Shown: piece after piece, positions 2,985 to 27,352 of the stretch | How positions within the stretch are numbered: position 1 is the first letter of the stretch | How the letters are laid out: every line of letters begins with the position of its first letter | NCBI GenBank assembly: GCA_964470215.1 | Contig: CAYYCI010000001.1 | Coordinates: 1-32,592, forward strand | Length of the DNA stretch: 32,592 nt | Source of the DNA: an uncultured Planctomycetota bacterium | GTDB lineage: Bacteria > Planctomycetota > PUPC01 > DSUN01 | Direction: 5' to 3' | Notes under the pieces: model-generated | Told to the model about the DNA's origin: nothing | Seen by the model: only the letters and a program-made list of their open reading frames with translations | Database searches by the model: none | Program-made: the position numbers and the translations under genes

Positions 2985-2990
2985 CATCCC

Positions 2991-9756: not shown

Positions 9757-9826
9757 GGCGCACCCAAGGATAGCGGCGGTGGGGAAAATTGCCAGCGAGA
9801 GGAGAGCAGCAGCGAGCGAATCGCCG

Positions 9827-11413: not shown

Positions 11414-11447
11414 CCGACGCCCGGGCCCCCCCTGCCCCGGGCGTCGG
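11414..11447. terminator. Perfect 12-bp GC hairpin between convergent genes (probable bidirectional terminator)
   Basis: CCGACGCCCGGG (11414-11425) pairs with CCCGGGCGTCGG (11436-11447) around a 10-nt loop. On the minus strand it is followed by the T-rich stretch TTGCCTGTTGTTG. There is no clean U-tract on the plus strand. Confidence 0.55.
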
Positions 11448-11484: not shown

Positions 11485-13047
11485 TCAGGACTGGTGCTCT
11501 TCGGAGGACCTGAGGGCGAGAGCGCCGGTGGGACAGGCCGCGGCACACTCGGCAGCCACGCGCCGCAGCCCCTCGCTCAACGGCCGCGAGAACGGCGGCG
11601 CGATCACCACCTCGTAGCCACGCCCCAGAAAGGCCATGCCCAATTGCTCCCCCGCCTGGCTCGCGATCTGGACGCACAGGCCACAGCGAATGCACTTCCC
11701 AGGCTCGTAGATGACCTCAGGATGATCTGTCCAGAGTTCGAGGGAGCGGCGTTCGTCCTTGTAGCGAGTGGGCTTCGCGCCATAGGCCGCGGCGTAGCGG
11801 CGGAGTTTGCACGAGACGGGTTTGCGGCAGTCGCAGTGGAGGCAGCGGGCCGCCTCTGCCCTGGCCTCGGCCTCGACGAAGCCATCCCCGGCAGGCTCCA
11901 CACGTGAGCGGCCGTCCGCCAGCGCGACCAGTCGCTGCATCTCCGCATCGCTCAGGCGGCCCATGTGGACGCTGAATTCGCGCTCGGGGCCGGTCGGCTC
12001 CTGGCCCTTGAGGAACTGATCAACCGAGACGGCCGCGACCCGGCCCTCCGCAACGGAGCGGACGGCCATCCTCTTCGGCCTCACGGCGCTGCCCGCCGCG
12101 AAGATGCCGGCAATGGGGGTGGCGAGGCTGCGGCGGTCGGCCTCGATGCCTTCCCTGGCAAGAGGCAATCCGAGCGCCGCGCCCTCGTCGTCTATCACCC
12201 CGCCGACCGCCACGACGACCGCATCGAAGTCCGCGAGGAGTTCCGTCGCATTCTCGATTCGCCGTCCGGTGACGAGCCTCGCGCCCATCCTCTCGACCAG
12301 GGCAATCTCGGAATCGAGCACCTCGGGCGGCAGGCGTTCGGGCGACAGCGCCGAGCGCAGGGTGCCGCCGGCTCTGTCGTTGGCCTCGAAGATGGTCGGC
12401 TCGTGGCCGAGAATGACCAGGTGCCAGGCGGCGGCCAGGCCGGCCGGCCCGGCGCCGACGACCGCCACCCGCTTGCCCGACGGCTCCTTCTTCTGTGGCA
12501 AGGTTGGCTCGTCCCGCGCCAGGTCGGTGTCGGCGGCGAACCGCTTGAGCAGGCAGATCGCCACCGGGGCGTCGTGTTGTCCCCTCCGACAAGCGCGCTC
12601 GCAGGGCGCAGGACAAATGCGGCCGAGGACCGCAGGCAGCGCGATGCGGCGACGGACAGTGGCGACCGCCTGGCGGAACTCGCCACGGGCGATCTGGCGG
12701 ATCATCAGGGGAATGTTCATCCCTGCTGGACAGGCGGCCTGGCACGGGGCGATGCAATCGCCGAGATGGTCGCTGAGGAGGAGTTCGAGGGCCACGCGCC
12801 GCGCCTCCCTGACCTCCTCGCTCGAGGCGTCCACCACCATGCCGTCCTCGGCCTTCGTCGCGCAGGCGGGGACGAGGTTCTCCTTGCCCTCGACCCTGAC
12901 CACACAGACGAAACACGAGGTCAGCGGCTCGCGGCCGTCGGCGTAGCACAGCGTGGGGATTTCGATCCCCACTGACCGGGCCGCCTGGAGGATGGTTGCC
13001 CCGGGTTCGGCTTCCACCGGCTTGCCGTCAATGGTCAGTTTCGGCAT
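11485..13047 (-). CDS. Iron-sulfur flavoprotein: N-terminal 2Fe-2S ferredoxin domain + GltD/NfnB-like FeS and FAD domain (NAD(P)H subdomain apparently missing) + C-terminal 4Fe-4S region
   Basis: CX10CX2CX13C (CYADGREPLTSCFVCVV...PAC). GltD-type block CIAPCQAACPAGMNIP...GRICPAPCERAC. GXGXXG in VAVVGAGPAGLAAA, then GIFAAGSAV. C-terminal CLHCDC and CIRCGLC...CAAACPTGA. Confidence 0.8.
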   Translation of the reverse strand: MPKLTIDGKPVEAEPGATILQAARSVGIEIPTLCYADGREPLTSCFVCVVRVEGKENLVPACATKAEDGMVVDASSEEVREARRVALELLLSDHLGDCIAPCQAACPAGMNIPLMIRQIARGEFRQAVATVRRRIALPAVLGRICPAPCERACRRGQHDAPVAICLLKRFAADTDLARDEPTLPQKKEPSGKRVAVVGAGPAGLAAAWHLVILGHEPTIFEANDRAGGTLRSALSPERLPPEVLDSEIALVERMGARLVTGRRIENATELLADFDAVVVAVGGVIDDEGAALGLPLAREGIEADRRSLATPIAGIFAAGSAVRPKRMAVRSVAEGRVAAVSVDQFLKGQEPTGPEREFSVHMGRLSDAEMQRLVALADGRSRVEPAGDGFVEAEARAEAARCLHCDCRKPVSCKLRRYAAAYGAKPTRYKDERRSLELWTDHPEVIYEPGKCIRCGLCVQIASQAGEQLGMAFLGRGYEVVIAPPFSRPLSEGLRRVAAECAAACPTGALALRSSEEHQS

Positions 13048-13053
13048 TTGTTC

Positions 13054-15435
13054 TCACTCGACCTCGACGGCATCGGTCGGGCAGATGCCCCGACAGGTGC
13101 CGCAGCGGACGCATTTCTCCGGATCGATCTCGTGTTTCTCGTAGGGCCTCATCTCGATTGCGTCGGCTGGGCAGTGCTGGGCGCAGAGCGTGCAGCCGAT
13201 GCATTCGTCGGTGATGTGGTAGGTGATGAGGGCCTTGCACCGGCCGGCCGGGCAGCGGCCCTCGATGTGGGCTTCGTATTCGTGGCGGAAGTAGCGCAAG
13301 GTGGTCAGCACGGGGTTGGGCGCGGTCTTGCCCAGGCCGCAGAGGCTTCCCCGCTTGACCATCAGGGCGAGGCGCTCGAGTTCTTCGAGGTCGCCCTTCC
13401 GCCCCTTGCCCTCACACAGTCGGTTGAGGATGTCGAGCATGCGGCGGGTGCCGATCCGACAAAACGTGCAGCGCCCACACGACTGGTCCTGGGTGAACTG
13501 GAGGAAGTAGCGGGCGATGTCCACCATGCAGTCGTGTTCGTCAAGGACGACGAATCCGCCGGAGCCCATGATGGCCCCGGCCTCGGTGAGCGCCTCGTAG
13601 TCCACGGGGATGTGGCCGAGGGCGGCGGGTATGCACCCGCCGGACGGCCCGCCGATCTGGACCGCCTTGAAGCGCCCTGTGGCGTTTCTGGGCGTGAGCG
13701 CGTGTTGTGGCGGGGCGACGCCCCCGCCGATCTCCTCGACGATCTCGCGGATGGTCGTGCCCATCGGCACCTCGATCAGGCCGCCGCGGGCGACCTTGCC
13801 GGCGAGGGCGAAGACCTTGGTGCCCTTGCTCCTGGCGGTGCCGATTGCGGCGAATGCCTCGGCGCCGTGGCGGATGATCCAGGGCACGAGGGCGAGGGTC
13901 TCGACGTTGTTGACCAGGGTGGGCTTGCCGCGCAGACCGCGCTCGGCCGGATAGGGGGGCCGGAGCCTCGGCATCCCGCGTTTGCCCTCGATGGAGGCCA
14001 GCAGAGCCGTCTCCTCGCCGCAGACGAATGCCCCCGCCCCTTCCATTATCGTCACCTCGAGCGAGAAGCCCGAGCCGAGGATGTTCTGGCCCAGGTAGCC
14101 CCGCTCGCGACACCGCTCGAGCGCCTCGCGCACGCGCCGCACCGCCGGCGGGTATTCCTCGCGGATGTAGAAGTAGCCGCGCGAGGCGCCCACTGCGAAA
14201 GCCGCGATGATCATCCCCTCGATGACCCGGTAGGGATAGGATTCGAGAAGCATGCGGTCCATGAAGGCGCCCGGGTCGCCTTCGTCGCCGTTGCAGACGA
14301 CGAACTTCGGCCCGGCGGGCTGGGAGCGGACGGCCTGCCACTTCAGGCCCGTGGGGTAGCCGGCCCCGCCGCGCCCGCGCAGGCCGCTGCGGCTCACCTC
14401 CTCGATGGCCCCCTCCGGACCGAGCTCCTTGACGACGCGCTCGAGCGCGCAGAAGCCCTCATGGGCGAGATACTCGTCTATGTCCACCGGATCGATCTCG
14501 CCCCAACACTCGGTGGCGATGTGGCGCTGGGGCCCGAGGAAGGACGCGACGGGCGGGTCGCGGACCTCGAGTTGGTAGCGCCTCGCCGGTTGCCGCGCGG
14601 CGTCGGTCAGGAGGTCGTCCAGTGCCCGCACCGTCAGGGCCTTGGCCTTCCGCGCGAGGCCGCGGGGGCGGAAGTGGCGGAGGATGATCGCCTCGGCATC
14701 CTCGGGCTCCACGCGGCCGTAGAGGCCGGCCCGCCGCCCGCGTTGGACGACTTCGACGAGCGGGGTTTGGTCGCACATTCCCACGCACCCGACCCGCTTC
14801 AGGCGCGCCGGCGTACCGAACTTGGCTAGCGCGTTCTCAAGCGCCACGTGGAGACGGCCACTGCCGCGCGCCAGGCAACACGAGTCCAGGCAGATGCGGA
14901 TTTCCGCCTCGGCGGCGCCAGCGCCGGCCTCGTGTTCCGCCCAGCCGCGTCGCTCGCCCGACTCCTCGAGCTCCAGGAAGTCGCGGAGAACCTTGGGCAC
15001 GGTGTCCGGGGTCAGGTGGCCATAGGTGACGCCGTCGATCTGCACCACCGGTGCCAGGGTGCAACAGCCCATGCAAGCGACGCTCTGGACCGTGAAGCGG
15101 CGGTCGGGGTCGGTGTCGTCGCCCTCGGGAATTGCCAGGTGGCGGTGGAAGGCATCGAGGACCAGCGGCGCGCCCTTGACGTGGCAAGCCGTGCCCACAC
15201 ACACCCGCACCATGTGTTCGCCCATCGGCTTGTGGCGAAACTGGGAGTAGAACGTCGAGACCCCGGCGACCGCCGCCGGGCTGATCTCGGTGATCTCGCA
15301 GAGGCGCTCGAGCGCCTCCTGCGGCAGATAGCGATACTCCTTCTGGATGGCCTGGAGGAGCGGGATGAGGGCCTCGGCCGTTCGTCCCAGACGCTCGACC
15401 GCTCTGTCCACCGCGCTCAGGTCAATCTCGCTCAT
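13054..15435 (-). CDS. NuoE-NuoF fusion flavoprotein with C-terminal 2x[4Fe-4S] ferredoxin (HydC+HydB / HoxF-like NADH-binding subunit)
   Basis: NuoE-like CVGTACHVKG...ACMGCCTLAP. Second thioredoxin-like 2Fe-2S CLDSCCLARG...GCVGMCDQTP. NuoF blocks GRGGAGYPTGLKW, CNGDEGDPGAF, SCGRCTFCR, LCGLG. C-terminal CIGCTLCAQHCP and CVRCGTCRGICP. Confidence 0.9.
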   Translation of the reverse strand: MSEIDLSAVDRAVERLGRTAEALIPLLQAIQKEYRYLPQEALERLCEITEISPAAVAGVSTFYSQFRHKPMGEHMVRVCVGTACHVKGAPLVLDAFHRHLAIPEGDDTDPDRRFTVQSVACMGCCTLAPVVQIDGVTYGHLTPDTVPKVLRDFLELEESGERRGWAEHEAGAGAAEAEIRICLDSCCLARGSGRLHVALENALAKFGTPARLKRVGCVGMCDQTPLVEVVQRGRRAGLYGRVEPEDAEAIILRHFRPRGLARKAKALTVRALDDLLTDAARQPARRYQLEVRDPPVASFLGPQRHIATECWGEIDPVDIDEYLAHEGFCALERVVKELGPEGAIEEVSRSGLRGRGGAGYPTGLKWQAVRSQPAGPKFVVCNGDEGDPGAFMDRMLLESYPYRVIEGMIIAAFAVGASRGYFYIREEYPPAVRRVREALERCRERGYLGQNILGSGFSLEVTIMEGAGAFVCGEETALLASIEGKRGMPRLRPPYPAERGLRGKPTLVNNVETLALVPWIIRHGAEAFAAIGTARSKGTKVFALAGKVARGGLIEVPMGTTIREIVEEIGGGVAPPQHALTPRNATGRFKAVQIGGPSGGCIPAALGHIPVDYEALTEAGAIMGSGGFVVLDEHDCMVDIARYFLQFTQDQSCGRCTFCRIGTRRMLDILNRLCEGKGRKGDLEELERLALMVKRGSLCGLGKTAPNPVLTTLRYFRHEYEAHIEGRCPAGRCKALITYHITDECIGCTLCAQHCPADAIEMRPYEKHEIDPEKCVRCGTCRGICPTDAVEVE

Positions 15436-17159
15436 TTCGCGCCGATGCAGAAGAGGTGTTTTTTCCCGCGGACGTAGATTCTCCCGCCGACGAATGCCGG
15501 GGTGGCGCGCACAGGCTCACCGATGGGCGAGCGAGCCAGTTCCTTGAACTTCCGCGCCACCGCCACCACGACCGCCACGCCCTTCTCGGTGAAGACGTAG
15601 AGCCTGTCGCCGACGATGGTCGGCGAGGCCGAACACGGCATCTCGAGTTCCGCATCCCAGACCTTCTCGCCCGTCTTCGCGTCGTAGCAGGTCAGTATGC
15701 CGGTGTTGTCGAGCAGGAAGAGGAGTTTGCCGTCGGTGACCGGGCTACAGGTATCGGGCAGGCCCTCCTCGCCTTTCCACAGGATGTGGGTCTCCGTCAC
15801 ATTGCCCTTGCCGTCGGTTCGGATGGCGGCGGCATAGGAGCCGGAGTTGGCAACGTAGGCCACGCCATCCACACACACTGGCGAGGGCGCAATCTCCCCC
15901 CCGAGAACCTCCGCCCGCCAGACCTCCTTGCCCGTGGCAACCTCGTAGGCCGAGACGAACGGGTCGGAACAACAAATGATCTGTTCGCCCGAGGGTGTCG
16001 GCGCCACGATGGGGGTCATCCAGGTCTGGGGACTCTCGCGCGGGGTCTCCCAGACGGTCTGTCCCGTGCGGGTGTCGAGGGCGATGAGTTTCGACTTGTG
16101 GTCGTCGGGCGCGGCCTGGTCGTACGGGACGATCAGCCGGTCGCGCCAGAGAGCGAGCGAGGAGGCATGGCCGTAGGAGTTGTCGGGCACTCCGAGGTTC
16201 CGCGCCCACGCCCTGCGGCCCTGGAAGTCGAACGCCGCGATGTCGCCCGTGGCGAAGAGCGCATAGACCCGCCGACCGTCGGTCACGGGCGTCGGGGCCG
16301 CGTAGCCAACCGCTTCCATCACCTCGGGAAACTTGGCCGGGCTGCCCGGGATGGGGCGCGGGTCCTTCCGCCAGAGGAGTTGACCGCTCTTGGTCTCGTA
16401 GCAGAAGACCTCGTAGTGTTTCTTGTCCGAGCCCGTCAGGAACAGTCGCTCGCTCCAGACCACCGGCGAACTAGGCGCGGGGAGCGGAATCTCGCTCTTC
16501 CAGACCACGCCCTTGCCCGTCTTGCAGTCCCAGGCCAGCGGATAATTGCCCTGCCTGACCAGCCCAAGGCCGCCCGGCCCCCGGAAGCGCGGCCAGTTCG
16601 CGGCCATCTCTTCGGCCGATGGCCAGGGTGGCGCGGACGGGGCCTTCCGCTGGACGAGCGGCGTGGTCGTCCCGGCGACCAGTCCCGCCGCGACCGCCAG
16701 CAATCCGGCGGCCGTGGTCGCCACGATTCTCCTTGCACGGCGCCAGGCCGGCGCGTCGGGTCCCGTCGGCTCCGGAGCGCCTGTCGGCATCGGCGGACGC
16801 TTGCCCAACTCGCGGGCGACTTTGGCCGAGGCGGCGAAAACCACAAGCCCGACCGCCAGGAGGTAGCGCCCCGTGAGCATGAGCCGCGTCCGCGAGAAAT
16901 AACTCTGGCGCAGGCGCAGGTCGAGGGCGCGAATCTTCTGGCGCAGGTCGTCGTTGGCGCGGTCTTCGCGGAGCGCGAACTTCAGTTTAGCCAGCGCGTC
17001 GGCGTCGCGGATGTCTGCCGCGCGGCTCCTGAGGCTGAACGAGATCATCACCACTGCCACGAAGAGCGAGACCAGCCCGGCGACGGCCGCAGTGGCCACG
17101 GCGGCCTTGCGCCAGGCGGAGAGGTCTCGCAGCTGGGCCTTTGCTTCGGCACCAGTCAT
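15432..17159 (-). CDS. Membrane-anchored PQQ-like (BamB-like) beta-propeller repeat protein
   Basis: Three N-terminal hydrophobic helices, then WPRFRGPGGLG and repeated propeller blades (...LFLTG..., VYALF..., GKEVWR...). ATGA overlaps at both ends (17156-17159, 15432-15435). Confidence 0.8.
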   Translation of the reverse strand: MTGAEAKAQLRDLSAWRKAAVATAAVAGLVSLFVAVVMISFSLRSRAADIRDADALAKLKFALREDRANDDLRQKIRALDLRLRQSYFSRTRLMLTGRYLLAVGLVVFAASAKVARELGKRPPMPTGAPEPTGPDAPAWRRARRIVATTAAGLLAVAAGLVAGTTTPLVQRKAPSAPPWPSAEEMAANWPRFRGPGGLGLVRQGNYPLAWDCKTGKGVVWKSEIPLPAPSSPVVWSERLFLTGSDKKHYEVFCYETKSGQLLWRKDPRPIPGSPAKFPEVMEAVGYAAPTPVTDGRRVYALFATGDIAAFDFQGRRAWARNLGVPDNSYGHASSLALWRDRLIVPYDQAAPDDHKSKLIALDTRTGQTVWETPRESPQTWMTPIVAPTPSGEQIICCSDPFVSAYEVATGKEVWRAEVLGGEIAPSPVCVDGVAYVANSGSYAAAIRTDGKGNVTETHILWKGEEGLPDTCSPVTDGKLLFLLDNTGILTCYDAKTGEKVWDAELEMPCSASPTIVGDRLYVFTEKGVAVVVAVARKFKELARSPIGEPVRATPAFVGGRIYVRGKKHLFCIGAK

Positions 17160-18454
17160 AGCGGCTTCGCCTCACTCAGCGCCTTGCGCCGCTGGCGTTC
17201 CACGGGGCAATAGTCGTAGCACCGCCCGCAAGCCACACAAAGCGCGCGGTCGGCCTCGTAGTCGGCGCGCGTCCGCCACACCGAGAGGGCCAGGAGTTTC
17301 ACCCCGACCACGAGGCCCATCCAGGCGCCGAAGAGCCTTCCGCCGAGGGCGAACTGGCGCCTGAGCGCCAGCGCATCGGCGTAGAGTTCCTCGGGCGGGC
17401 GGCCTGTCTCGCGGAATGCCTCGCTTGCGTCGGTCGTGTCCTCGACCTCGCCCTCTTCCTCCAGGCGCACCCGCTCGGCCAGCGCGACAGTGGCATGAAG
17501 TTTCGAGAACGGGGTGCCAAGCGCACCCCCGCCCCACGCTCCCAGACCCACCAACACCGGCGCCAGAGCCAACAAGTAGGCGAGGCGACGCCGGCCAGCC
17601 AGGCGCTGACGCCTGGTCGGGGGTTCCACCGGAGCGCGCAGCGCCCCAAAGGGACACGAGTCCTCGCACAGACGACACCTCACGCATTCATCGGGCGTGA
17701 TCGTCACCCGCCGGCTCGACACCCGCGAGAGCCAGGAGAGCAGCACGCCATAGGGACAGAAGAAGCGGCAGTAGGGCCTCCCGACGAAAAGCGCGATCAC
17801 CAGGACGCAAGCGCCGAAAAGCACCATGTTGAGCGAGCCGCTCAGGCGGAAGAACCCGACGAACGGGTCGTAGCGACAGATGAGAAAAGCCGCGCCGGTC
17901 GCCGCGAAGACCACCGTGGCTCCCAGATAGGCGTAGGCCAGCAGGCGCAGCGCCTCCTCCAACCACCCCGGCACCCTCACGGGCCGGATGAGAACCAGGT
18001 CCTGGAGCGCCCCGAGCGGGCAAACCGACGAGCAAAACACCCGCCCGAAGACCAAAGCGAAAAAAAGCGGTAAGAGGAAGAAAAGCAAAACGGTGAGCGG
18101 AATCGCATAGGTGGGCTGGAAGATGGCCAGCACGACATTCTGCACCGCCCCCACGGGACATATGCACCCGCCCCTGACGAACCCGAAATAGAAGAGCGAG
18201 GCAACGGCGAGGGCGAAGAGCGCCCGCCGCGAACGCAGGCGAAAGGCGAAGTATGACGCCAGGCCAAGCGCCACGACCAAAAGCCCAACGTCCAGCCACT
18301 CGAGGGCCGCTGCCCGTGGCGGCGGATGTTCGGTTTTCGGCAACTCGTAGCCGGAGGTGAATTCGGGAGTGGGGAAGCGCTCGGCCGCTAACGCCCCGGG
18401 ACAAACAGCGGCCATCCCGACCAGGATCGCTAGCGTGGCGGCCAGTCTTCTCAA
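17156..18454 (-). CDS. NapH/NosR/MauN-like integral-membrane polyferredoxin
   Basis: Signal/TM segments. Two CX3CP motifs (GRVFCSSVCPLG, GRPYCRFFCPYG). Two CX2CX2CX3CP clusters (CVRCRLCEDSCP, CVACGRCYDYCP). The TTG start overlaps the upstream stop (TTGA at 18451-18454). Confidence 0.8.
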   Translation of the reverse strand: MRRLAATLAILVGMAAVCPGALAAERFPTPEFTSGYELPKTEHPPPRAAALEWLDVGLLVVALGLASYFAFRLRSRRALFALAVASLFYFGFVRGGCICPVGAVQNVVLAIFQPTYAIPLTVLLFFLLPLFFALVFGRVFCSSVCPLGALQDLVLIRPVRVPGWLEEALRLLAYAYLGATVVFAATGAAFLICRYDPFVGFFRLSGSLNMVLFGACVLVIALFVGRPYCRFFCPYGVLLSWLSRVSSRRVTITPDECVRCRLCEDSCPFGALRAPVEPPTRRQRLAGRRRLAYLLALAPVLVGLGAWGGGALGTPFSKLHATVALAERVRLEEEGEVEDTTDASEAFRETGRPPEELYADALALRRQFALGGRLFGAWMGLVVGVKLLALSVWRTRADYEADRALCVACGRCYDYCPVERQRRKALSEAKPL

Positions 18455-19047
18455 TCCCCCTCCTCTTCCTCGAGGGCCGGAGAATAGCCGAAATGCTTCG
18501 GATAGATGTAGGGGTGCTCAGCGGGCACGCGCACGAACGCCTCGGCGGGACACGCCACCGCGATCGAACATTCGTTACAGTTCACGCACAGGTTGTGGCG
18601 AACCTGGAGGAACAGCGACCCATTCCCGAACGCCACGCATCCCTCCACACACTTCGCACACCCGATGCAGAGGTCCTCGTCTATGCGATACTCGTAGAAG
18701 GGGTCCTCGACGAACGTGCGGACGATCGCGCCGACGGGGCAGTTCTGGTTCTCGGCCCCGGTGTTCAGTTCGATTGGTTCCGGCTCGAAGTAGCCGGTGC
18801 AAAGTTCGCAGTAGCCACAGAGAGCGTAGGCGTGGACACACTTGACCGCCGAGGGCTTCAGGACGCAGTAGGTGGCGCAGTTCCCGCAGCGGGTGCACTT
18901 GTTGGGGTCGAGTTGCCAGACGAGGCCGTCGCCCCGGCTCCTGGTGGCCAGGACGCCCGCGGCGGCTCCGAGGCCCAGCAACGACGCCCCGCGCAGGCCG
19001 CTGCGCAGGAACTCGCGTCGGTCCATCGGCTTTTCCTTCTCGTTCAT
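18451..19047 (-). CDS. Tat-exported 4x[4Fe-4S] ferredoxin (NapG/NrfC-like)
   Basis: Trimmed to ATG 19047 (AGGAAG SD). Twin-arginine motif DRREFLRSG. Cluster motifs CTRCGNCATYC, CGYCELC...NCP, CIGCAKCVEGC, CVNCNECSIAVACP. Confidence 0.85.
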   Translation of the reverse strand: MNEKEKPMDRREFLRSGLRGASLLGLGAAAGVLATRSRGDGLVWQLDPNKCTRCGNCATYCVLKPSAVKCVHAYALCGYCELCTGYFEPEPIELNTGAENQNCPVGAIVRTFVEDPFYEYRIDEDLCIGCAKCVEGCVAFGNGSLFLQVRHNLCVNCNECSIAVACPAEAFVRVPAEHPYIYPKHFGYSPALEEEEGD

Positions 19048-19244
19048 CGCCACTTCCTGGCCCCGGGCAAATCGCACTCTGGCCAGAGCGGGCAGCCGCG
19101 GCAGCGGTAGGCGCGCTTGCAAGCCTCGGGGTCGGCCAGCGCTCTGACTGCCAGTCGCCCACCGAGACCCGCCAGCGCCCCGATAGCACACCACCGGGCG
19201 AGCCTCGCCATCGCCTCGCGGCGTTCCTCTCCGCGCTCGTTCAT
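19044..19244 (-). CDS. Small (66 aa) single-TM Cys-rich protein (CX5CX2CX5C)
   Basis: ATGA overlap with the upstream gene (19241-19244) and the downstream gene (19044-19047). GGAG lies 6 nt before the ATG. Hydrophobic helix WCAIGALAGLGGRLAV followed by CKRAYRCRGCPLWPEC. Confidence 0.6.
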   Translation of the reverse strand: MNERGEERREAMARLARWCAIGALAGLGGRLAVRALADPEACKRAYRCRGCPLWPECDLPGARKWR

Positions 19245-20233
19245 CTGGCGCTCCGCTCGAAGACCCGGATGGTCGAGGTCTCAGGGTCCAGCACGTAGAC
19301 CCTCCCGTCGGGGTCGGTCGCCAGGTCGAGGTCCACTGCGTCCTTGTCGAAGACCCCCGGCGGCGCGACCACCTCGACGACCTTCCCCTCCAGGTCGCAG
19401 ACCTTCACCCTCGGGATGCCCTTCTCGCTCGTGACGAAGAGGCCCTCCCTCAAGATGGCGAGGTTCGTGGGGTTGCAACACCCACAGAAGCCCTCGATCC
19501 CGAAGCCGCGCTTGCCCCAATGGACCTCCAGGTCGCCATCGAAGGTGTAGCCCTCGACCCTGAAGCGCCCGCAGTTGGTCACCCAGAGCAGGCCCTCCGG
19601 CCCGACCGCCAGGTCGCCGTGGAGGCTGGGGAAGACCAGGCCCGGGATGTTGCGCTCGGAGTCCTTCCTGCCGATGCGCTTGAGCAGTTTCCCGGAGCGG
19701 TCGTAGCGATAAACCACCGCCGCCCCCGGGTCAATTGCGAAGACGTTCTCCTCGGCCAGTGCGATGCCGGTGATGAAGGCATCCTTGTCGGGCGGCTTCC
19801 ACGATGCCTTCAGTTTCCCCTTGGGGTCGTAGACCTCGATGTGGTCGAAGACGCCGACGAAGAGCGTCCGATCGGCGTCCACGGCCACGCAGCGGGCCCG
19901 CCCCCTGGTGGCGATGTCGGAGAGGACGGCGCCGCTGGCGTCCAGGATGCGCACCTTGCCGTCGGCGGCCACGTAGAGGCGCCCGGCGCCGTCGCGCGCG
20001 AGGCCGCCCACGTCGTCCAGGCCGACCGGGATGCTGCGCACCTGGCGATACTTCACCAGGGCCGGGTCCACTTTGCGAAACGCGCTCACGTCGTAGGTGA
20101 AGTCCTTGCCCAGGCCGCTGCCGGCGGTGCCGCGTGTGTCGGTCCGGAACACCACCACGATGGCCACCGCAGCCGCTGCGACGATCGCCACGGCGATCAG
20201 AAGTGCAACGAAAGAAAAGCCGCCTCGTCTCAT
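19241..20233 (-). CDS. Membrane-anchored NHL-repeat beta-propeller protein
   Basis: N-terminal TM FSFVALLIAVAIVAAAAVAIVVVF. Repeated NHL-like blades (GRLYVAD..., TLFVGV..., NVFAIDPG..., GLLWVTN..., GLFVTS..., GRVYVLDP). Unusual FCGCCNP motif. Confidence 0.75.
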   Translation of the reverse strand: MRRGGFSFVALLIAVAIVAAAAVAIVVVFRTDTRGTAGSGLGKDFTYDVSAFRKVDPALVKYRQVRSIPVGLDDVGGLARDGAGRLYVAADGKVRILDASGAVLSDIATRGRARCVAVDADRTLFVGVFDHIEVYDPKGKLKASWKPPDKDAFITGIALAEENVFAIDPGAAVVYRYDRSGKLLKRIGRKDSERNIPGLVFPSLHGDLAVGPEGLLWVTNCGRFRVEGYTFDGDLEVHWGKRGFGIEGFCGCCNPTNLAILREGLFVTSEKGIPRVKVCDLEGKVVEVVAPPGVFDKDAVDLDLATDPDGRVYVLDPETSTIRVFERSAR

Positions 20234-20234
20234 C

Positions 20235-21638
20235 TCAATGTTTGCCCACGTCGAGACAGACCATACGCTCGGTGTCGCGGACGATCAACCTTCCCGCCAC
20301 CAAGGTCATCGGAGCCCAACTCTCCCGGCCATCGAGCACCCTGGCCTGGGCCAGGACCTTGAATCCCGCCGGGCTGGCCTCGGCCAGGGTCAGCGTCCCG
20401 GTGTCGTTCATCACGTAGAGGAGCCCCTGATCCGAGACAAGGTAAGGTCCGAGACCGAAGCGGTGTGCCGCGCCGCTCTTCCACACGACTTTGCCGTCCG
20501 GCGTGGCACACGCCAACTGGCCATCGGCACACACCGCGTAGAGATGTCCCTGGTAGAGGATGGGGGTGTGTTGGGGGGAGTCGAAAACCTTGGCCTTCAG
20601 CCGAAGGAGCGGCCTGGCCTCGATCTTCCCATCCTTCTCCTCCAACTGGAGGATCATGCTCCCGGCGTTGTAGCCCCCGGTGAGGAAAATCCGGCCGTTG
20701 CCCAGCGGCACCGGCGATGGGACGTTCGCGATGCTGATCCGCCATTCGGGCGTCTTCCACAGCAGCGAGCCATCCCGGGCGTCCACCCCCACGACCCCGC
20801 CGCTCGCGCAGTAAACGAACATCCGCTTGCCGGCGAACTCCATCGGCATCACCGAAGAGTGAGTCATCCGCCAGCGGTCGGGGTTCGGAGTCTTCCAGAG
20901 GACTTTTCCCGTGTTGCAGTCCACGGCCATCAGGAGCGCGTCCGGCCCGCCGGGCGCCAGGATCAGGCGCTCGCCGTCAATGAGCGGACACTGCCCCGCG
21001 TACCACGGCGGCACCCTAGCCCCGAAGTCCCTCACGAGGTCAACGATCGGGAATCGGGGCTGCCCCGTCTCGGCGTCCAGACAGGCGACGTGGCACTTCG
21101 GCCCGAGGGTCGCAACGTGCTTGTCGGTCACAGCGGGGAGGGTCCGCGACATCCCGTGGTTGCGCTTGACCTCGACCGGATAGGAGAAATGCCAGATTTC
21201 CTGTCCGTCGGCCAGGGAGAGGCAACGCAGGGTGTCGGCCTTGGCCTCGTGGTCGTAGTCGAGGACGTAGGCCCTCCCCTTGTGGACGACTGCTCCGGCG
21301 TAGCCCTCGCCGAGTTGGCGCGACCAGAGCGCCGGCGGCCCGCCCTCGCCCCACGAGCGGGCCAGTGGGGTGGGGTCGCGACAGATGTTGTCGAAGTTCG
21401 GCCCGCGAAACCTCGGCCACGAGCCCGCTATGTCCGCCGCCTGAGCGACGCCGTGGACCACCATCCCCGTCAACTTCACCGGCCGCTCGACCGTCGCTCT
21501 GGCGCTTCGGCGGTCGGTGCCAGGCAGCCTCGCCTGTAGGTCGGCAGCCGGGCTGCTGGTGAGCCACAACATGGCCGCGAGGCCGAGCCCCACGGCCACC
21601 ATCGCAGGCACCGCAGCGGGCAGAAGGCGTTCTCTCAC
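20235..21638 (-). CDS. Membrane-anchored/secreted PQQ-like (BamB-like) beta-propeller repeat protein
   Basis: GTG start with GGGAAG SD, N-terminal hydrophobic segment, WPRFRGPNFDN, repeated blades (GRAYVLD, GQEIWH, GKVLWKT, GSLLWKT, GKVVWKS). The stop lies 1 nt before the next start. Confidence 0.8.
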   Translation of the reverse strand: MRERLLPAAVPAMVAVGLGLAAMLWLTSSPAADLQARLPGTDRRSARATVERPVKLTGMVVHGVAQAADIAGSWPRFRGPNFDNICRDPTPLARSWGEGGPPALWSRQLGEGYAGAVVHKGRAYVLDYDHEAKADTLRCLSLADGQEIWHFSYPVEVKRNHGMSRTLPAVTDKHVATLGPKCHVACLDAETGQPRFPIVDLVRDFGARVPPWYAGQCPLIDGERLILAPGGPDALLMAVDCNTGKVLWKTPNPDRWRMTHSSVMPMEFAGKRMFVYCASGGVVGVDARDGSLLWKTPEWRISIANVPSPVPLGNGRIFLTGGYNAGSMILQLEEKDGKIEARPLLRLKAKVFDSPQHTPILYQGHLYAVCADGQLACATPDGKVVWKSGAAHRFGLGPYLVSDQGLLYVMNDTGTLTLAEASPAGFKVLAQARVLDGRESWAPMTLVAGRLIVRDTERMVCLDVGKH

Positions 21639-21667
21639 AACGACTTCCCTGCCGTTCGTCCCCCCAC

Positions 21668-21705
21668 CTATTTTACTCTTTTCGCACTATTTTACTCTTT
21701 TCGCA
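21668..21705. repeat. Perfect 19-bp tandem duplication (CTATTTTACTCTTTTCGCA x2) spanning the permease stop codon
   Basis: Units at 21668-21686 and 21687-21705 are identical. Unit 2 encodes the last permease codons plus TAA, and unit 1 is a non-coding copy. This is an AT-rich island in GC-rich DNA. Confidence 0.9.
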
Positions 21706-24700
21706 GCGCGGGGAGAAGCGAGCCCGCCAGCGCCGCGGCGGCGGCCAGAAGCGTCCAGGCCAGGCCCCCGGCGACGATTGCCGCCAGAGTGAGGGCGAGC
21801 GAGGCGTAGGGGACATCCGCCCCCGGCGACCTGAGGGCCGGCACGACCGCCACCAGCGCGGCCACCACCCCGCAGGCCAGGCCCATCGCCAGGAGGCCCC
21901 AGTGTTCGCTCAGGACCATCCACTGGATGCGGGACCGCCGGAAGCCCACCGCGCGAAGCAGCGCGAGTTCCGCCCGGCGCTCGAGGACATTTCGCATCAC
22001 CACCACCGCCAGGCCGATGCTCCCAAGTACCAGTCCCAGACCTCCGAGGATCTGGAAGATCGAGAGGTAGGTGTTCTCGACCGTGGTGAACTCGGCCAGG
22101 CGGAGCGGGGCCGGGGTTGCCTCGAAGCCCACATCGCCGAGCGCCGCCATCAGCGTCTTGCCCACCTGGTCGGCTCGCCCCCAGGGGGCGTCAATCAGGA
22201 ACATCCGGTAGCCTTCCGCCGAGGGGAAAAGTTCCACGAACCGCTCCTCGGCAATGAGGAGATTCCCCTGGAGCACCGAGTTGGCGAGGACGCCGACCAA
22301 CCTGATCTTGAAGGGCCGCCCTCGGTCGTCGGTGTAGTCGAGTGTGTCGCCGACCTTCTTCGCCAGTCCCCAGGTAACCGTGGCGTCGTCGCCGACGGCA
22401 GGCACCACCCCGGGGCCGAGGTCCTTGCGTAGTAGAGACCACGGCTGGTCGGTCTCCTCGATTGTCTTGACGAAAGTGAATGCCTTGCGGGAGGCCAGCG
22501 CGTCGGGCTGGACGCCCAGGAGGGTCGGGCGTTGGGCACGGTTGAGGTTCAGGCAACTGGCGTCGTCGCCCTCCCGGACCCGCAACGCCACGACCTGCAC
22601 TCCCTCGAGTTCCTTTTCCTCGAGGCCATAGAGCTCTCGGCCCCTGGTCGTGTTGAGATCCTCGAAGATGGGAATGGTCGAGCGCCCGACGAGCCCGAAG
22701 CCGCCAGTGCCCGAACTCCGCTCGCGGGCAGCGAGCCACGGGTCCTTGCGGTTCGCCCCGACGGCCACGACGAGGAAACTCCCGCAGGCCAGAAGCCCGA
22801 CGACCCCCAGGCTCCTGCCCCTTCTCCTGGCGGCATTTCGCCAGCCGAGCGCAGCGAGGGAGCGGCTCGGCTGTGGCCTCGGCCTGAGCGCCGCGACCAG
22901 GAGTCCTCGGCTGAGCAGGATGCCCCCGACGAGCAGGAGCGCCCCGGCCCCGAAGAAACCCGCGGCGGCCGCCTGGTCGCGCCTCGGGCCGAGGGCGACC
23001 ACGATGACAACCGCCCCGAGGATGAAGGCCAGGCCGAGCCAGGTCAAGAAGCGTCGGCTCGGTCGCGGCGCCACTGCCGCCCCGCCTTCGGCCAGGGCGA
23101 GGAGTTCGCGCGGTGGCCGGCGAACCTGGCGTCGCAGGGTCAGCCACATCGCCACCAGCGCGACGACGAACGCCGCCCCAGCGCCGATTGCCAGCGACGA
23201 CGGATTGACGTGGTAGAGGATGACGCTTCGCGCAATCGCTCCCCGCCACACGGTCGCGAGGAGATGGAGGACGAGACGGGTGTAGCCGGTCCCGGCGGCC
23301 GAGCCAATGACTGAGCCGAGGAAGGCGAGCGTGGCGCCCTCGGTCACGAGCAGGCGCCCCACCTGGCGCGGGCGGAGGCCCAACGCGAGGAGAGTGCCCA
23401 CCTCCTCCCTGCGCTGCTCGACCCCGAAGACGAAAAGGAGCGCGGTCAGGAGCACAGCGGCGGCGATGAGGAAGAAACTCAAGCCGATGAAGAGTTGGCC
23501 GAAGTCGAGGGCCTGGCCGCTGGCGGCAAGGGCCAGTTCTCGCACTGGGCGGAAGAAAAGCCCCAGCGCGGCGGGCTCGAGCCTCGCGCGCATGGCCGAG
23601 GCCAGTGAGGCGGCCGAATTGCCCGCCAGAGGATAACGGACCGCCGTCAGATTCCCGAAGCGGTTGTTCCAGAGTCGGCGTCCGGTGGCCAGCGCGATGA
23701 ACGCCTTCGGGGTGCCGCGGTGAGCGTCCCAGTAGTCCTCGTCCTTCTTGCGAATGCGCGAGAGGTCAATGGGGATGCCGGGCCGCCAGTCGCGGCAGTT
23801 TTCGACCTCGGCGATCCCGGGGAACTCCGGCATCAGCGACCCGTCCGCGGCCACTCCCGTGAGCGGCACGACCGTCCGGACGGTGAAGCCGGCCTGGCGC
23901 TCGACCAGTCGGCGCATCGGGCCGACGATGTAGTAGGACATCGTCAGGCGGTCGCCGGGCTTCGCGCCCAGGTCGTCGGCCAGCCACTGGTTGATCACCA
24001 CCTGGTCGCCGGCGAGGTCGGGCGGCAGTGGAGGGAGATCGAGTCTCGCGCGGTCGAGCCGGCCAATCGCGCTGACCATCGCGTAGGGGGTCGTTCGCTC
24101 GGCGACCTTCAGTTCGTTGACGAAATAAGTCAGGACGCCCACCGCGCCCGGGATTGCGTTGGCCGCTTCGGCCACGGGCGGCTCGAGGAAGATGCGCTCG
24201 GAGCGCAACTCCAGGCAGCCTGGGCCTTCCAGTTTCCTGACCTCCAGCCCTGCGTCGGAGAGGCTCCAGTGTTCTTCCAGCCGGGCGTTTGCCTCGTCGG
24301 CGGACAGGGTGGTGAGCAAGAGGTTGGCTTTGCCCGCCAGGCCGACCTTTCGCTGGAGATAGCCGAGCGAGAGGAAGGCGTTGTTGGGCGGCAGTTGGTT
24401 GGCCCCGAGGCCGAATCTCCCGAAGGCCTCGTCATCCACGATGGCGGCGACGTCGAGCCTGAGGGCGATGGCGTAATCGGCCGAGACCGACAGCGGCGCG
24501 TCGCGCGAGACCACGCTCGGTTTGTTGAAGCGAAGGACAACCTGGTCGCCGGGACCGACGCCCAGTTGCCTGGCGAGTTTGGCGTTGAGCGCCACCTGGT
24601 CGTCGCCGAGGTCGAGGGCTGGGGGCTCGGAGGCCAGCGACCAGAAGCGGCGGTCAACGCCGAGGACCTGGACGTCGTTCGCTCGCGCGGCTCCGTCGCC

Positions 24701-24973
24701 TCTGACGGCCAGGCCGCTGAGGCGGAGGGCTGGCGCGGCCCCGTCGAGGTGCGAGGCGAGGGCCTCGCGAAAGAACCGTCCGCCGGTGTCCATCGCCGAG
24801 ACGGTCTTGCCCAGTCGCACGAGGGCGAAATGGCGCAGGGAAAAGCGAACCGAGTCGCCGACGGCCAGGGCTCCGACCAGGACGGCCGCGCCGACCGCCG
24901 AGCCGAGGACGACGCCGAGATGGGTGCGCCAGTAGTGGCGAAGGCTGCGCAGGACGAGGGTGGCGCCGCTCAT
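21692..24973 (-). CDS. ABC transporter permease with two FtsX domains and large extracytoplasmic domains (MacB/YbbP-like, 1093 aa)
   Basis: Two FtsX-type C-terminal 3-TM blocks (...LLFVFGVEQRREEVGTLLALGLRPRQV... and ...VVVMRNVLERRAELALLRAVGFRRSRI...). ATGA overlap with the ATPase gene at 24970-24973. Confidence 0.85.
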   Translation of the reverse strand: MSGATLVLRSLRHYWRTHLGVVLGSAVGAAVLVGALAVGDSVRFSLRHFALVRLGKTVSAMDTGGRFFREALASHLDGAAPALRLSGLAVRGDGAARANDVQVLGVDRRFWSLASEPPALDLGDDQVALNAKLARQLGVGPGDQVVLRFNKPSVVSRDAPLSVSADYAIALRLDVAAIVDDEAFGRFGLGANQLPPNNAFLSLGYLQRKVGLAGKANLLLTTLSADEANARLEEHWSLSDAGLEVRKLEGPGCLELRSERIFLEPPVAEAANAIPGAVGVLTYFVNELKVAERTTPYAMVSAIGRLDRARLDLPPLPPDLAGDQVVINQWLADDLGAKPGDRLTMSYYIVGPMRRLVERQAGFTVRTVVPLTGVAADGSLMPEFPGIAEVENCRDWRPGIPIDLSRIRKKDEDYWDAHRGTPKAFIALATGRRLWNNRFGNLTAVRYPLAGNSAASLASAMRARLEPAALGLFFRPVRELALAASGQALDFGQLFIGLSFFLIAAAVLLTALLFVFGVEQRREEVGTLLALGLRPRQVGRLLVTEGATLAFLGSVIGSAAGTGYTRLVLHLLATVWRGAIARSVILYHVNPSSLAIGAGAAFVVALVAMWLTLRRQVRRPPRELLALAEGGAAVAPRPSRRFLTWLGLAFILGAVVIVVALGPRRDQAAAAGFFGAGALLLVGGILLSRGLLVAALRPRPQPSRSLAALGWRNAARRRGRSLGVVGLLACGSFLVVAVGANRKDPWLAARERSSGTGGFGLVGRSTIPIFEDLNTTRGRELYGLEEKELEGVQVVALRVREGDDASCLNLNRAQRPTLLGVQPDALASRKAFTFVKTIEETDQPWSLLRKDLGPGVVPAVGDDATVTWGLAKKVGDTLDYTDDRGRPFKIRLVGVLANSVLQGNLLIAEERFVELFPSAEGYRMFLIDAPWGRADQVGKTLMAALGDVGFEATPAPLRLAEFTTVENTYLSIFQILGGLGLVLGSIGLAVVVMRNVLERRAELALLRAVGFRRSRIQWMVLSEHWGLLAMGLACGVVAALVAVVPALRSPGADVPYASLALTLAAIVAGGLAWTLLAAAAALAGSLLPALRKE

Positions 24974-25665
24974 GGCGTCTCTCCCGCCGGCACGAGCGCG
25001 CCGTCGCGGAGTTCGAGCACGCGCCCCATCCGCTCGGCCAGATGCACGGCATGGGTGACCATCACGAGCGTGACGCCCTCCTCGCGGTTGAGTTCGGCGA
25101 GGAGTTCGGCGAGGTTCTCGGCCGAGGCGCGGTCGAGCGAGCCGGTCGGCTCATCGGCCAGGAGGAGCCTCGGGCTGTTGATCAGGGCGCGGACCACGGC
25201 CACGCGCTGCCGCTCACCCCCGGAGAGTTGGCCGGGGAAGTAGTGGAGGCGGTCGGCGAGGCCGACGCGCTCGAGGAGCGCCCGCGCGCGCTCCTCGGCC
25301 TCCGGTTCCCCGCCCCCGGCCAGCGTGGGCACGAGGACGTTCTCGAGGACGGTGCACTGGGGCAGGAGGTGGTGGAGTTGGAAGACGAAGCCGATGAGGC
25401 GATTCCGCACCTTGGCCAGTTCGGGGTCGTCGAGGGTGGCCAGGTCGTGGCCATCGAGGACGACGGTCCCCGAGGTCGGGCGGTCGAGCGCGCCGATGAT
25501 GTTCAGGAGCGTGCTCTTGCCGGAACCCGAAGGCCCGACGACCGCCAGCGACTCTCCCGCCTCGACCCTCAGCGAGACGCCTCGCAGGACGGTCGTCGGC
25601 GGCCCGCCGCCTGGGTCTTCGTAGGTCTTGGCCACGTCGGTGAGTTCAAGCAGGGGTTCGCTCAT
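24970..25665 (-). CDS. ABC transporter ATP-binding protein (LolD/MacB-type)
   Basis: Trimmed to ATG 25665 (GGGAGGTGA SD). Walker A GPSGSGKST, signature LSGGERQRV, Walker B LLLADEPTGSLD, H-loop VTHA. Confidence 0.9.
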   Translation of the reverse strand: MSEPLLELTDVAKTYEDPGGGPPTTVLRGVSLRVEAGESLAVVGPSGSGKSTLLNIIGALDRPTSGTVVLDGHDLATLDDPELAKVRNRLIGFVFQLHHLLPQCTVLENVLVPTLAGGGEPEAEERARALLERVGLADRLHYFPGQLSGGERQRVAVVRALINSPRLLLADEPTGSLDRASAENLAELLAELNREEGVTLVMVTHAVHLAERMGRVLELRDGALVPAGETP

Positions 25666-25669
25666 CGGG

Positions 25670-27295: not shown

Positions 27296-27325
27296 TTGCC
27301 AACGAGCGGCGGGCAAGCCTATAAT
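27296..27325 (+). promoter_or_regulatory. Sigma70 promoter (TTGCCA-18 nt-TATAAT) for putA
   Basis: -35 TTGCCA at 27296-27301 and perfect TATAAT at 27320-27325. GGAAGGAGGTG SD and ATG 27353 follow. Confidence 0.5.
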
Positions 27326-27352
27326 CTGGGCACATCCCGGAAGGAGGTGCAG

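Follow-up and report, generated by a model that had tools for sequence, protein, structure and literature searches.

A gene cluster joining a Bfu-type NADH module to NapGH-like iron-sulfur proteins and extracytoplasmic propellers in Planctomycetota and other phyla: a candidate cytochrome-free transmembrane electron conduit

What could eight tightly packed genes accomplish together when they encode, in one run, an NADH-flavoprotein module, a set of NapGH-like iron-sulfur (FeS) proteins and three beta-propellers? This question is raised by a stretch of 32,592 nucleotides (nt) from an uncultured Planctomycetota bacterium (GenBank assembly GCA_964470215.1, contig CAYYCI010000001.1, positions 1 to 32,592; hereafter the window, 32.6 kb with a GC content of about 68%), in which an initial annotation, made from the sequence alone, had described a translationally coupled eight-gene operon and proposed it as an undescribed electron conduit. 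The list of open reading frames (ORFs) in the window contains these eight consecutive genes (g1 to g8, in the order of transcription) on the minus strand at 11485-21638, with the coordinates that had been claimed. By a modest balance of probability, we favor the reading that the cluster encodes a single membrane-bound, cytochrome-free conduit of a Bfu-NapGH-like type, which would link cytoplasmic NADH and ferredoxin to extracytoplasmic propellers across the membrane. That the cluster is a conserved entity is well supported, and the combination of genes appears to be new; from it we infer that the proteins assemble physically, which path electrons take and in which direction, that they are bifurcated and where the chemistry happens.

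Reading of the coding-strand DNA demonstrated that all seven junctions are exactly as first described. On the minus strand, g1 and g2 are separated by a 1-nt gap at 20234 (TGA-G-ATG), ATGA overlaps join g2 to g3 (19241-44), g3 to g4 (19044-47), g5 to g6 (17156-59) and g6 to g7 (15432-35), a TTGA overlap joins g4 to g5 (18451-54), and g7 and g8 are separated by a 6-nt gap (13048-53), which upholds the tight operon packing originally proposed. A Pfam profile search returned the same domain assignment for each gene. The propellers had been noted to be free of CXXCH motifs, and we find no CXXCH in any of 11 cluster proteins, i.e., the products of g1 to g8 and of three upstream genes, u1 to u3, described below. 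Domain calls and the CXXCH scan likewise bore out the absence of a hydrogenase, formate dehydrogenase, molybdoenzyme or cytochrome partner from the cluster. In addition, no molybdoenzyme, cytochrome c or napA, napB or napC gene is present in the window cluster or in related loci, and none of the 11 proteins matches FMN_bind or ApbE.

The cytoplasmic part of the cluster is made up of g7 and g8. The g7 product (13054..15435, minus strand) matches the Pfam families 2Fe-2S_thioredx, Complex1_51K, NADH_4Fe-4S and Fer4, i.e., it combines a NuoE-like [2Fe-2S] site, a thioredoxin-like domain, a NuoF-like site for flavin mononucleotide (FMN) and NADH with a [4Fe-4S] cluster, and two further [4Fe-4S] clusters at the C terminus. 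The 2Fe-2S_thioredx match (2e-52) spans residues 10-152 and includes the invariant C79, C84, C121 and C125 expected of BfuC, and since the N-terminal 155 residues are NuoE/BfuC-like, we class g7 as a BfuC-BfuB fusion. Its remainder carries the features that mark BfuB, namely the FMN/NADH site, the B1 [4Fe-4S] cluster and the two C-terminal [4Fe-4S] clusters. The ligands of clusters C1, B1, B3 and B4 are conserved, and those of the N-terminal thioredoxin-like site only partly so. The closest solved chain is that of NfnB (9n5u_B, 5e-209 over the full length), followed by 9bov_B, StnB (8oh5_B) and HydB (to 1e-166), compared with about 1e-108 for NuoF of complex I, and this proximity to NfnB argues for a bifurcation-type core rather than a plain NADH dehydrogenase. 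The earlier description of g7 as a NuoE-NuoF-ferredoxin fusion thus had the domains right and can be narrowed, in that the protein is specifically of the Bfu type and closest to NfnABC and StnABC.

The second cytoplasmic protein, g8 (11485..13047, minus strand; Fer2_4, Fer4_20 and Pyr_redox_2), is a truncated BfuA of the NfnA/StnC type. It contains an N-terminal [2Fe-2S] site, two [4Fe-4S] clusters (Fer4_20), a single Rossmann domain of the flavin adenine dinucleotide (FAD) type and two further NuoG-like cysteine-cluster motifs, and its closest solved chains are the BfuA subunits 9bov_A (3.5e-107), 9n5u_A (4e-94) and 8oh5_C (5e-91). Alignment with 9bov_A pairs residues 3-284 of g8 with residues 5-288 of the chain, and residues 264-510 with residues 417-671, skipping chain residues ~289-416, which form a ~128-residue NADPH-binding Rossmann domain (GGGNTAMD); the second Rossmann motif of solved BfuA (GQRVLVVGGGNTAMD) has no counterpart in g8. 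Furthermore, the sequence of g8 stops where chain residue ~671 of 1178 would be, so that the C-terminal formate dehydrogenase (Fdh)-like domain of ~500 residues is absent. This short form is not peculiar to the window: g8 proteins are about 520 amino acids (aa) long throughout the family, both among 50 homologues in related loci and among the 120 best database matches, with every cluster cysteine and one GxGxxG motif conserved. Judged from these alignments, loss of the NADPH site is family-wide, and the Nfn reaction would be impossible in the form in which it is known. Earlier, g8 had been called a 2Fe-2S/GltD-like flavoprotein, which holds for its domains; a working GltD/NADPH site is ruled out by the deleted Rossmann domain. 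The NAD(P)H/ferredoxin link proposed at the same time has to be reduced accordingly: the only evident cytoplasmic substrate is NADH at the NuoF part, probably together with ferredoxin, and NADPH falls away with its domain.

This truncation bears directly on how the cluster might work. In the solved NfnABC complex, electrons run along the path NADPH-FAD-A7-A6-A3-A2-A1-[B1-FMN-C1]-B3-B4-ferredoxin, and what a given Bfu enzyme does is determined by its BfuA or by whatever subunits BfuA carries (PMC11829005). Because g8 keeps the FeS wire and has no NADPH site, the Bfu core is left with no soluble third substrate, and the membrane module is therefore the sole candidate for this role in the operon. 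This gap in the third-substrate branch is, in our view, the strongest single argument that g7 and g8 may work with g5.

The membrane module centers on g5 (17156..18454, minus strand, TTG start), a NapH-like integral membrane FeS protein with two Fer4_5 matches (1.7e-20). A hydropathy scan of g5 found a signal peptide and seven transmembrane (TM) segments, and the protein contains two CX3CP motifs and two [4Fe-4S] motifs that are 100% conserved in the family. In a comparison with Escherichia coli NapH (29% identity), both CX3CP motifs and both C-terminal [4Fe-4S] motifs align. The scores stay far below the curated cut-offs (43.4 vs 213 bits for the NapH/MauN model TIGR02163 and 40.7 vs 234 for NF007013), and the NosR model reaches 34.8 on the cluster against a cut-off of 1000. 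Unlike NapH, g5 has what looks like a cleavable signal peptide, a conserved ERFPPPEF motif on the periplasmic side, three additional invariant cysteines in the motifs G-C97-x-C99-P and C193-R-Y-D-P-F, and, separating the two cluster motifs, an insert of ~120 residues that adds two TM helices and an acidic loop. Under the positive-inside rule, the CX3CP motifs and both clusters would lie on the cytoplasmic side, as in NapH, and C97, C99 and C193 on the periplasmic face. A sequence search of PDB with g5 returned no solved NapH-type membrane domain.

The gene preceding g5 encodes a NapG-like ferredoxin with a twin-arginine translocation (Tat) signal (g4; 18451..19047, minus strand; Fer4 families). 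As the initial annotation had it, g4 is a Tat-signal ferredoxin of four clusters, with an RREFL motif and four cysteine groups, enough for up to four [4Fe-4S] clusters. All four groups align with those of E. coli NapG (30% identity), and 16 cysteines are 100% conserved; the score against the NapG model NF007012 is 16.6, compared with a cut-off of 269. Between g2 and g4 lies g3 (19044..19244, minus strand), a 66-aa protein that combines an N-region of the twin-arginine type with a hydrophobic segment and a CX5CX2CX5C module; it has no family match in Pfam or NCBIfam but is called as a gene by public annotation pipelines. A small ORF occupies this position in nearly all related loci, with the same arrangement of S-R-R-x-L/F, a hydrophobic stretch, a basic patch and CX5CX2CX5C. 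In loci L002/L003 (9363-10001) and L005, g3 is fused in frame to the N terminus of g4 with a single Tat motif, and the g3 part replaces the Tat signal of the ferredoxin itself, which points to g3 being a subunit of this periplasmic ferredoxin that is either exported or anchored. Consequently, the earlier view of g3 as a cysteine-rich TM peptide stands as regards the cysteines and the hydrophobic segment, and falls short in treating it as a TM peptide and nothing more, given the Tat-type signal and the four-cysteine module. It is probably a Tat-exported or Tat-anchored mini-subunit of g4 that binds a cluster or a metal, and it may hold a fifth cluster.

Three propellers make up the remainder of the eight genes. 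Of these, g1 (20235..21638, minus strand) is a membrane-anchored PQQ_2-type propeller (2.8e-23) with one N-terminal TM-like segment, g2 (19241..20233, minus strand) is a membrane-anchored, six-bladed NHL propeller (1.6e-09) with one TM-like segment, and g6 (15432..17159, minus strand; PQQ_2, 2.6e-28) adjoins g5 and shows, in a hydropathy scan, the three TM-like segments predicted for it. The AlphaFold2 (AF2) model of g2 has a predicted local distance difference test (pLDDT) score of 92.6 and consists of an N-terminal helix and six blades; a Foldseek comparison with PDB found only TRIM-type NHL and generic propellers, and so gave no functional lead. The motif F-x-G-C252-C253-N-P is invariant in g2, with C252 and C253 100% conserved, and this vicinal pair is the best candidate for a redox site among the propellers. 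Neither g1 nor g6 qualifies as a known quinoprotein or as BamB, since they score 23.7 and 44.6, respectively, against a cut-off of 480 for the quinoprotein model TIGR03075 and 43 and 69 against 285 for the BamB model TIGR03300; the Pfam PQQ (pyrroloquinoline quinone) model matches only a single repeat, and g1 and g6 have TM anchors, unlike the BamB lipoprotein with its lipobox. Sequence searches of PDB with g1, g2 and g6 returned only designed propellers, BamB, quinoproteins at the level of repeats and tetrathionate hydrolase, the similarity of g6 to the latter (5e-08), as to BamB, being weak. We considered the conserved cysteines of g1, g6 and the upstream propeller u3 as a redox relay and rejected this, as most of them sit at the equivalent x-C-h-D..tG position in each PQQ_2 blade and are therefore probably structural parts of the repeat. 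Residues H161, C182/H183, C217, H260 and C277 of g1 fall outside the repeat motif and form a candidate site.

Taken together, these features allow a path to be proposed. NADH would be oxidized at the FMN of g7, and the Bfu core would exchange electrons with ferredoxin through the C-terminal clusters of g7 and with g8 through the A1 cluster. By analogy with other Bfu enzymes, this core probably couples NADH and ferredoxin, by confurcation or bifurcation, to a membrane branch. The third-substrate branch would be carried by g8 to the two cytoplasmic [4Fe-4S] clusters of g5, which would conduct electrons through the membrane, with the CX3CP motifs at the inner end and C97, C99 and C193 at the outer. 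There, the Tat-exported g4 and its four-cysteine partner g3 would receive the electrons and distribute them to the anchored propellers, for use at g6, g1 and g2, with C252-C253 of g2 as the best candidate redox site. We favor outward flow, i.e., the delivery of reductant to an extracytoplasmic acceptor or for the upkeep of an extracytoplasmic site, because the periplasmic set seems unable to oxidize a donor near -400 mV and because NapH-type proteins are known above all for supplying or activating enzymes of the periplasm (PMC5928378, PMC8238504). Such a role is in keeping with the view of NapH-like proteins as modular transmembrane electron-transfer units, paired with reductases or oxidases that include the propeller enzymes NirS and ExaA (PMC8238504).

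Is this arrangement a chance juxtaposition in one genome? When one genome was scanned for each GTDB species, at least 574 species genomes proved to encode a g5 relative, and a search at E <= 1e-10 gave more than 4000 g5 homologues, of which the best 120 are 56-85% identical over the full length. Where these homologues are named at all, the source records call them "4Fe-4S binding protein", polyferredoxin or NosR/NirI family, and the records for the cluster proteins in general go no further than "4Fe-4S binding protein", "FAD-dependent oxidoreductase" or "hypothetical". For synteny, we took the best 80 loci of the at least 574, the nearest relatives, with g5 identities of 47-65%, and located the 11 window proteins by tblastn, counting for each gene only those loci with enough sequence on the relevant side. 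The order [u3 - GT4 glycosyltransferase - u2 - u1] - g1-g2-g3-g4-g5-g6-g7-g8 - [1-3 more PQQ_2 paralogues] recurs. In these loci, g4 is kept in 73 of 73 and g6 in 68 of 68, g2 in 60 of 63 and g1 in 51 of 58, and for the cytoplasmic module the figures are 57 of 61 (g7) and 51 of 55 (g8). By their record titles, these loci come from at least seven phyla, namely Planctomycetota (Phycisphaerae, Sedimentisphaerales, Pirellulales, Thermoguttaceae and Anaerohalosphaeraceae), Verrucomicrobiota, Aegiribacteria, Poribacteria, Armatimonadetes, KSB1 and Aminicenantaceae, and searches begun from g8 homologues in Poribacteria and in another metagenome-assembled genome reach the same cluster. Since the order recurs across the 80 closest loci, the juxtaposition is far beyond chance, and random juxtaposition, which the initial annotation had named as the result that would undo its model, is not what the related genomes show. 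The Bfu module accompanies the core mainly in lineages known as anaerobes.

Comparison with known systems showed that the parts belong to the Bfu family and the NapH/NapG superfamily and that the combination fits none of the definitions of NapGH, Nfn/Stn or flavinylated NapH-like systems. With NapGH of E. coli and Wolinella succinogenes, the cluster shares the NapH membrane core and motifs in g5, the NapG Tat signal and cysteine groups in g4, and two adjacent, overlapping genes, as in napG/napH; in contrast, it lacks napA, napB, napC, napD, napF and any cytochrome, and has a dedicated cytoplasmic NADH module attached. With the NADPH:NAD+/ferredoxin transhydrogenases NfnABC and StnABC (9n5u, 9bov, 8oh5), the likeness extends to the FMN site, B1, C1 and B3/B4 in g7 and, with NfnA, to the A1 [2Fe-2S] cluster, the two Fer4_20 clusters, the FAD-type domain and the two further cluster motifs in g8, whereas the NADPH Rossmann domain and the Fdh-like C-terminal half are missing from g8, BfuC and BfuB are fused, and the genes lie inside a membrane/periplasmic operon. 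The Bfu survey of Schut et al. (2022) predicts Nuo-Bfu and Mbh-Bfu as the only membrane-bound types, leaves 17 BfuB clades without an assigned function, and contains no occurrence of either PQQ or NapH (PMC9304861). In Nuo-Bfu and Mbh-Bfu, as would be the case here, a Bfu core feeds or drains a membrane complex, but the arms there are of the complex I or Mbh type, and here the partner is a NapH-like FeS protein with the chemistry placed outside the cytoplasm.

The modular NapH-like systems of Méheust et al. (2021; PMC8238504), which include NosR, PceC/RdhC and NirS/ExaA clusters, similarly use a NapH-family transmembrane module to serve an extracytosolic oxidoreductase. They are defined by an FMN-binding domain flavinylated by ApbE, which this cluster does not contain; here, a Tat ferredoxin would serve as periplasmic carrier and a Bfu module as cytoplasmic donor, and a NuoF-like donor was noted in that study only for MsrQ-like systems (31 clusters; PMC8238504). 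The NosR-NosDFY-NosZ system also combines a NapH-type FeS membrane protein, an ATP-binding cassette (ABC) system and a periplasmic beta-propeller. It differs from the cluster in that the latter has no NosZ, NosD, NosL or copper signatures, its ABC system is of the FtsX/MacB type, and g5 has no flavin domain. No model in NCBIfam release 20 is reached by any of g1 to g6 or by g8, and the gene combination did not appear in full-text literature searches or in curated families, in agreement with the proposal that the system is undescribed.

Several points weigh against a single NADH-linked conduit. Docking of g8 and g7 on g5 is a step that we supply, and the AF2 model of g5 (mean pLDDT 57, from an alignment of 25 sequences) is too poor for tracing the transmembrane cysteine sites, so that the transmembrane path depends on motif positions and the positive-inside rule. 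The canonical NapH membrane domain is thought to oxidize quinol, with the role of its CX3CP motifs unresolved (PMC5928378), and quinone may conceivably take part here as well. In g8, FAD binding would hang on the one conserved GxGxxG, and the C-terminal GD-type motif is not strictly conserved. Pfam, NCBIfam and PDB sequence and fold searches found generic folds only and no recognizable cofactor site in the propellers, which could be scaffolds rather than enzymes. The 80 loci, being the closest of at least 574, are a sample biased to near relatives. Moreover, four loci have g1 to g6 with no g7 or g8 nearby, including that of the cultured aerobe Novipirellula herctigrandis CA13 (Pirellulales), in which a Tex gene follows g6, and the Bfu module is therefore a frequent companion of the core and not essential to it. 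The link between NapGH-like proteins and an NADH module, as first proposed, accordingly holds in most loci; the donor is not obligatory, as the core g1 to g6 also occurs alone.

These points leave room for other explanations. The relay might serve maintenance or repair, as in NosR/NosDFY, by keeping an external thiol or metal site reduced (the Cys-Cys pair of g2 or the His/Cys patch of g1) or by detoxifying peroxide or oxidized envelope components, with the ABC-FtsX module aiding assembly or export. NosR is a NapH-type protein needed both for activation of and for electron supply to the propeller enzyme NosZ (PMC5928378), and this cluster similarly joins an ABC system and propellers to a NapH-like protein; C252-C253 is invariant in g2, H161/H183/H260 and C217 are conserved in g1, the core g1 to g6 is present in aerobes, and an AhpC/TSA-redoxin gene precedes g4 in one locus (L082) and a catalase gene follows g6 in another (L071). 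We nevertheless think this explanation unlikely, given that such stress-gene neighbors occur in two loci only and that no redox-stress gene recurs in a screen of all flanks, that the ABC system is of the FtsX/MacB rather than the NosFY type, and that copper- or NosZ-like signatures and the ApbE/FMN-binding domain typical of NosR are absent. A less probable reading again keeps the same proteins and reverses the current, such that a low-potential external donor would be oxidized at the propellers, g4 and g5 would carry electrons inward, and the Bfu core would bifurcate to NAD+ and ferredoxin. Such an uptake system would follow the sense in which solved NfnABC runs, with NAD+ and ferredoxin receiving electrons from a mid-potential branch that NADPH feeds through the FAD of NfnA (PMC11829005), and g8 retains that branch minus the NADPH site; NapH-like modules have been proposed to lead "to reductases or from oxidases", PQQ-type ExaA propellers among them (PMC8238504). 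However, the cluster has no recognizable catalytic cofactor for a donor near -400 mV and no hydrogenase, formate dehydrogenase, molybdopterin or heme, its propellers are far under the curated cut-offs for PQQ-dehydrogenases, and aerobes keep g1 to g6 minus the Bfu core.

Two further explanations detach the propellers or the Bfu core from the relay. If g5 reacted with quinone, the cluster would encode either a new NADH/ferredoxin:menaquinone oxidoreductase or a periplasmic branch that depends on quinol, with the propellers as structural partners of ABC-FtsX instead of redox partners. We hold this to be quite improbable: g6 is 100% linked to g5 and translationally coupled with both g5 and g7, and g1 and g2 stay with g3 to g6 in the 15 of 41 loci where ABC-FtsX is absent, even though NapGH in its canonical form is classed as a menaquinol dehydrogenase (PMC5928378, PMC8238504), PQQ_2 propellers such as BamB are scaffolds, and genomes with g1 to g6 and no g7 or g8 must have another donor, such as quinol. 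The NapH family has no known quinone-site motif, and no signature in sequence has been established for its quinol site (PMC5928378). Finally, g7 and g8 could be a soluble transhydrogenase of the Nfn/Stn type that stands beside a separate NapGH-like membrane system, a suggestion that has in its favor the resemblance of both proteins to soluble NfnABC and StnABC and the four loci from which they are missing. Against it stand the absence from g8 of the NADPH-binding domain that defines the Nfn/Stn reaction, the ATGA overlap of g6 and g7, their adjacency in 57 of 61 loci across phyla, and the return of the same cluster by g8-based searches, which make it very improbable indeed; among the alternatives, mere adjacency alone is clearly disfavored.

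If the cluster does encode an outward conduit fed by NADH, it would give a function to one of the 17 unassigned BfuB clades (PMC9304861) and would be the first Bfu enzyme to reach its third substrate across the membrane by a relay of FeS clusters only. It would also define a cytoplasmic donor for a NapH-family protein; for two decades, what the cytoplasmic clusters and CX3CP motifs do in NapH, NosR and RdhC has been an open question. A broader claim, which we advance tentatively and consider doubtful as it stands, is that this is a widespread bifurcating Bfu complex that uses neither cytochromes nor quinones, has an extracytoplasmic third substrate reached through FeS proteins alone, couples that substrate directly to the NADH and ferredoxin pools, and performs a new redox chemistry at propellers that lack a recognizable cofactor site, for example at the vicinal Cys-Cys of the NHL propeller; were it correct, fermentative Planctomycetota, Verrucomicrobiota, KSB1, Aminicenantes and others would possess an unrecognized extracytoplasmic electron sink or source. 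The carriers, with at least 574 species genomes, are poorly understood, mostly uncultured, glycan-degrading and fermentative lineages, and metabolic reconstructions ignore the cluster; an extracytoplasmic electron sink or repair system would alter the models of their energy metabolism. N. herctigrandis, which is in culture and lacks the Bfu module while keeping the core, opens the membrane and periplasmic part to genetics.

The operon itself extends beyond the eight genes first described. The eight are indeed tightly joined, but three more lie upstream on the same strand: u3 (25670..26803), an exported PQQ_2/BamB-like beta-propeller with an N-terminal signal-like segment (Beta-prop_ACSF4 1.5e-68, PQQ_2 2.7e-43) that is probably the first gene of the operon; u2 (24970..25668), an ABC transporter ATPase (ABC_tran 5.7e-36); and u1 (21692..24973), a 1093-aa double permease of the FtsX/MacB type with about 10 TM-like segments in a hydropathy scan (FtsX 2.1e-26 in two stretches, MacB_PCD 8.1e-07). 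The likely start of u2 is M47 (position 25668) of a longer ORF (24970-25806), its homologues being ~230 aa long; with this start, a 1-nt gap follows the stop of u3, and an ATGA overlap joins the stop of u2 to the start of u1. Since these three genes are co-directional, tightly joined and only 53 nt from g1, the unit probably comprises 11 genes, from u3 through g8. Related loci with enough sequence contain u3 in 30 of 39 cases, u2 in 26 of 40 and, directly upstream of g1, u1 in 26 of 41, and this propeller-ABC-FtsX set is a frequent accessory module. The AT-rich spacer between u1 and g1 (21639..21691, minus strand) contains no predicted terminator-like site. At 21650-21700 (minus strand), it includes an AT-rich direct repeat, AAAGAGTAAAATAG-TGCGA-AAAGAGTAAAATAG, in this genome of 68% GC; the first copy spans the stop codon of u1, and the repeat looks like a small tandem duplication of the 3′ end of u1. 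Beyond g8, a terminator-like hairpin (11415..11446, minus strand) with a GC-rich stem of 13 bp and a U-rich tract, GUUGCCUGUUGUUGU, lies 38 nt past the stop codon; it appears in the centroid fold, and the folding energy of the 90-nt stretch (z = -0.6) is not unusual for its GC content.

The flanks of 84 loci were also screened for recurrent genes. Only a GT4 glycosyltransferase (22 loci), an unannotated protein of ~190 aa (11 loci) and an Sde182-like protein (4 loci) recur, and no known terminal reductase or redox-stress gene does so among all flanking ORFs. The GT4 gene, which is absent from the window, lies between u3 and u2 in 22 loci (for example, at 1287-2597 in L008), and in the Poribacteria locus L084, a GT4 gene (11624-12922) adjoins g8. 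This locus also carries an insertion sequence (DDE_Tnp_1) and a PIN_2 gene at 4419-5874, between two PQQ_2 propeller genes and the NuoEF gene, and no Fer4_5 (NapH-like) gene was called in the stretch of L084 examined. The ~190-aa protein, which has no Pfam match, follows the extra PQQ_2 paralogues downstream of g8 in L010 (13815-14429) and in 10 other loci. Among the loci without g7 and g8, Tex comes next in L046 and a catalase gene follows g6 in L071 (13936-15438); in L082, from which the Bfu module is absent, the AhpC/TSA-redoxin gene is at 8446-9039, just before g4. The catalase and AhpC/TSA neighbors may hint at oxidative-stress or thiol chemistry, an anecdotal observation from two loci. 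In L001 (CP070806.1, a complete Phycisphaerales genome), a 696-aa multiheme cytochrome with an MtrC/MtrF-type domain (976-3066, minus strand) is encoded divergently upstream of the FtsX gene and was not seen in other loci.

Neighboring genes of the housekeeping type in the window are those for a GH57 branching enzyme (824-2893, minus strand) and a NamZ exo-muramidase (8605-10032, minus strand), and beyond u3 a divergent putA gene encodes a PutA proline dehydrogenase/aldehyde dehydrogenase (27296-30325, plus strand). The many long antisense ORFs across the window are artefacts of the kind that high GC content usually produces. An Rfam scan of the window and five related loci showed no riboswitch and returned only a 6S RNA, located away from the operon. 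This 6S/SsrS match (3021-3202, plus strand) scores 51.5 bits against the Rfam gathering score of 46.4 (E 4.9e-07) and lies just upstream of an ORF for an MgsA-type AAA ATPase (3171-4610), overlapping its start.

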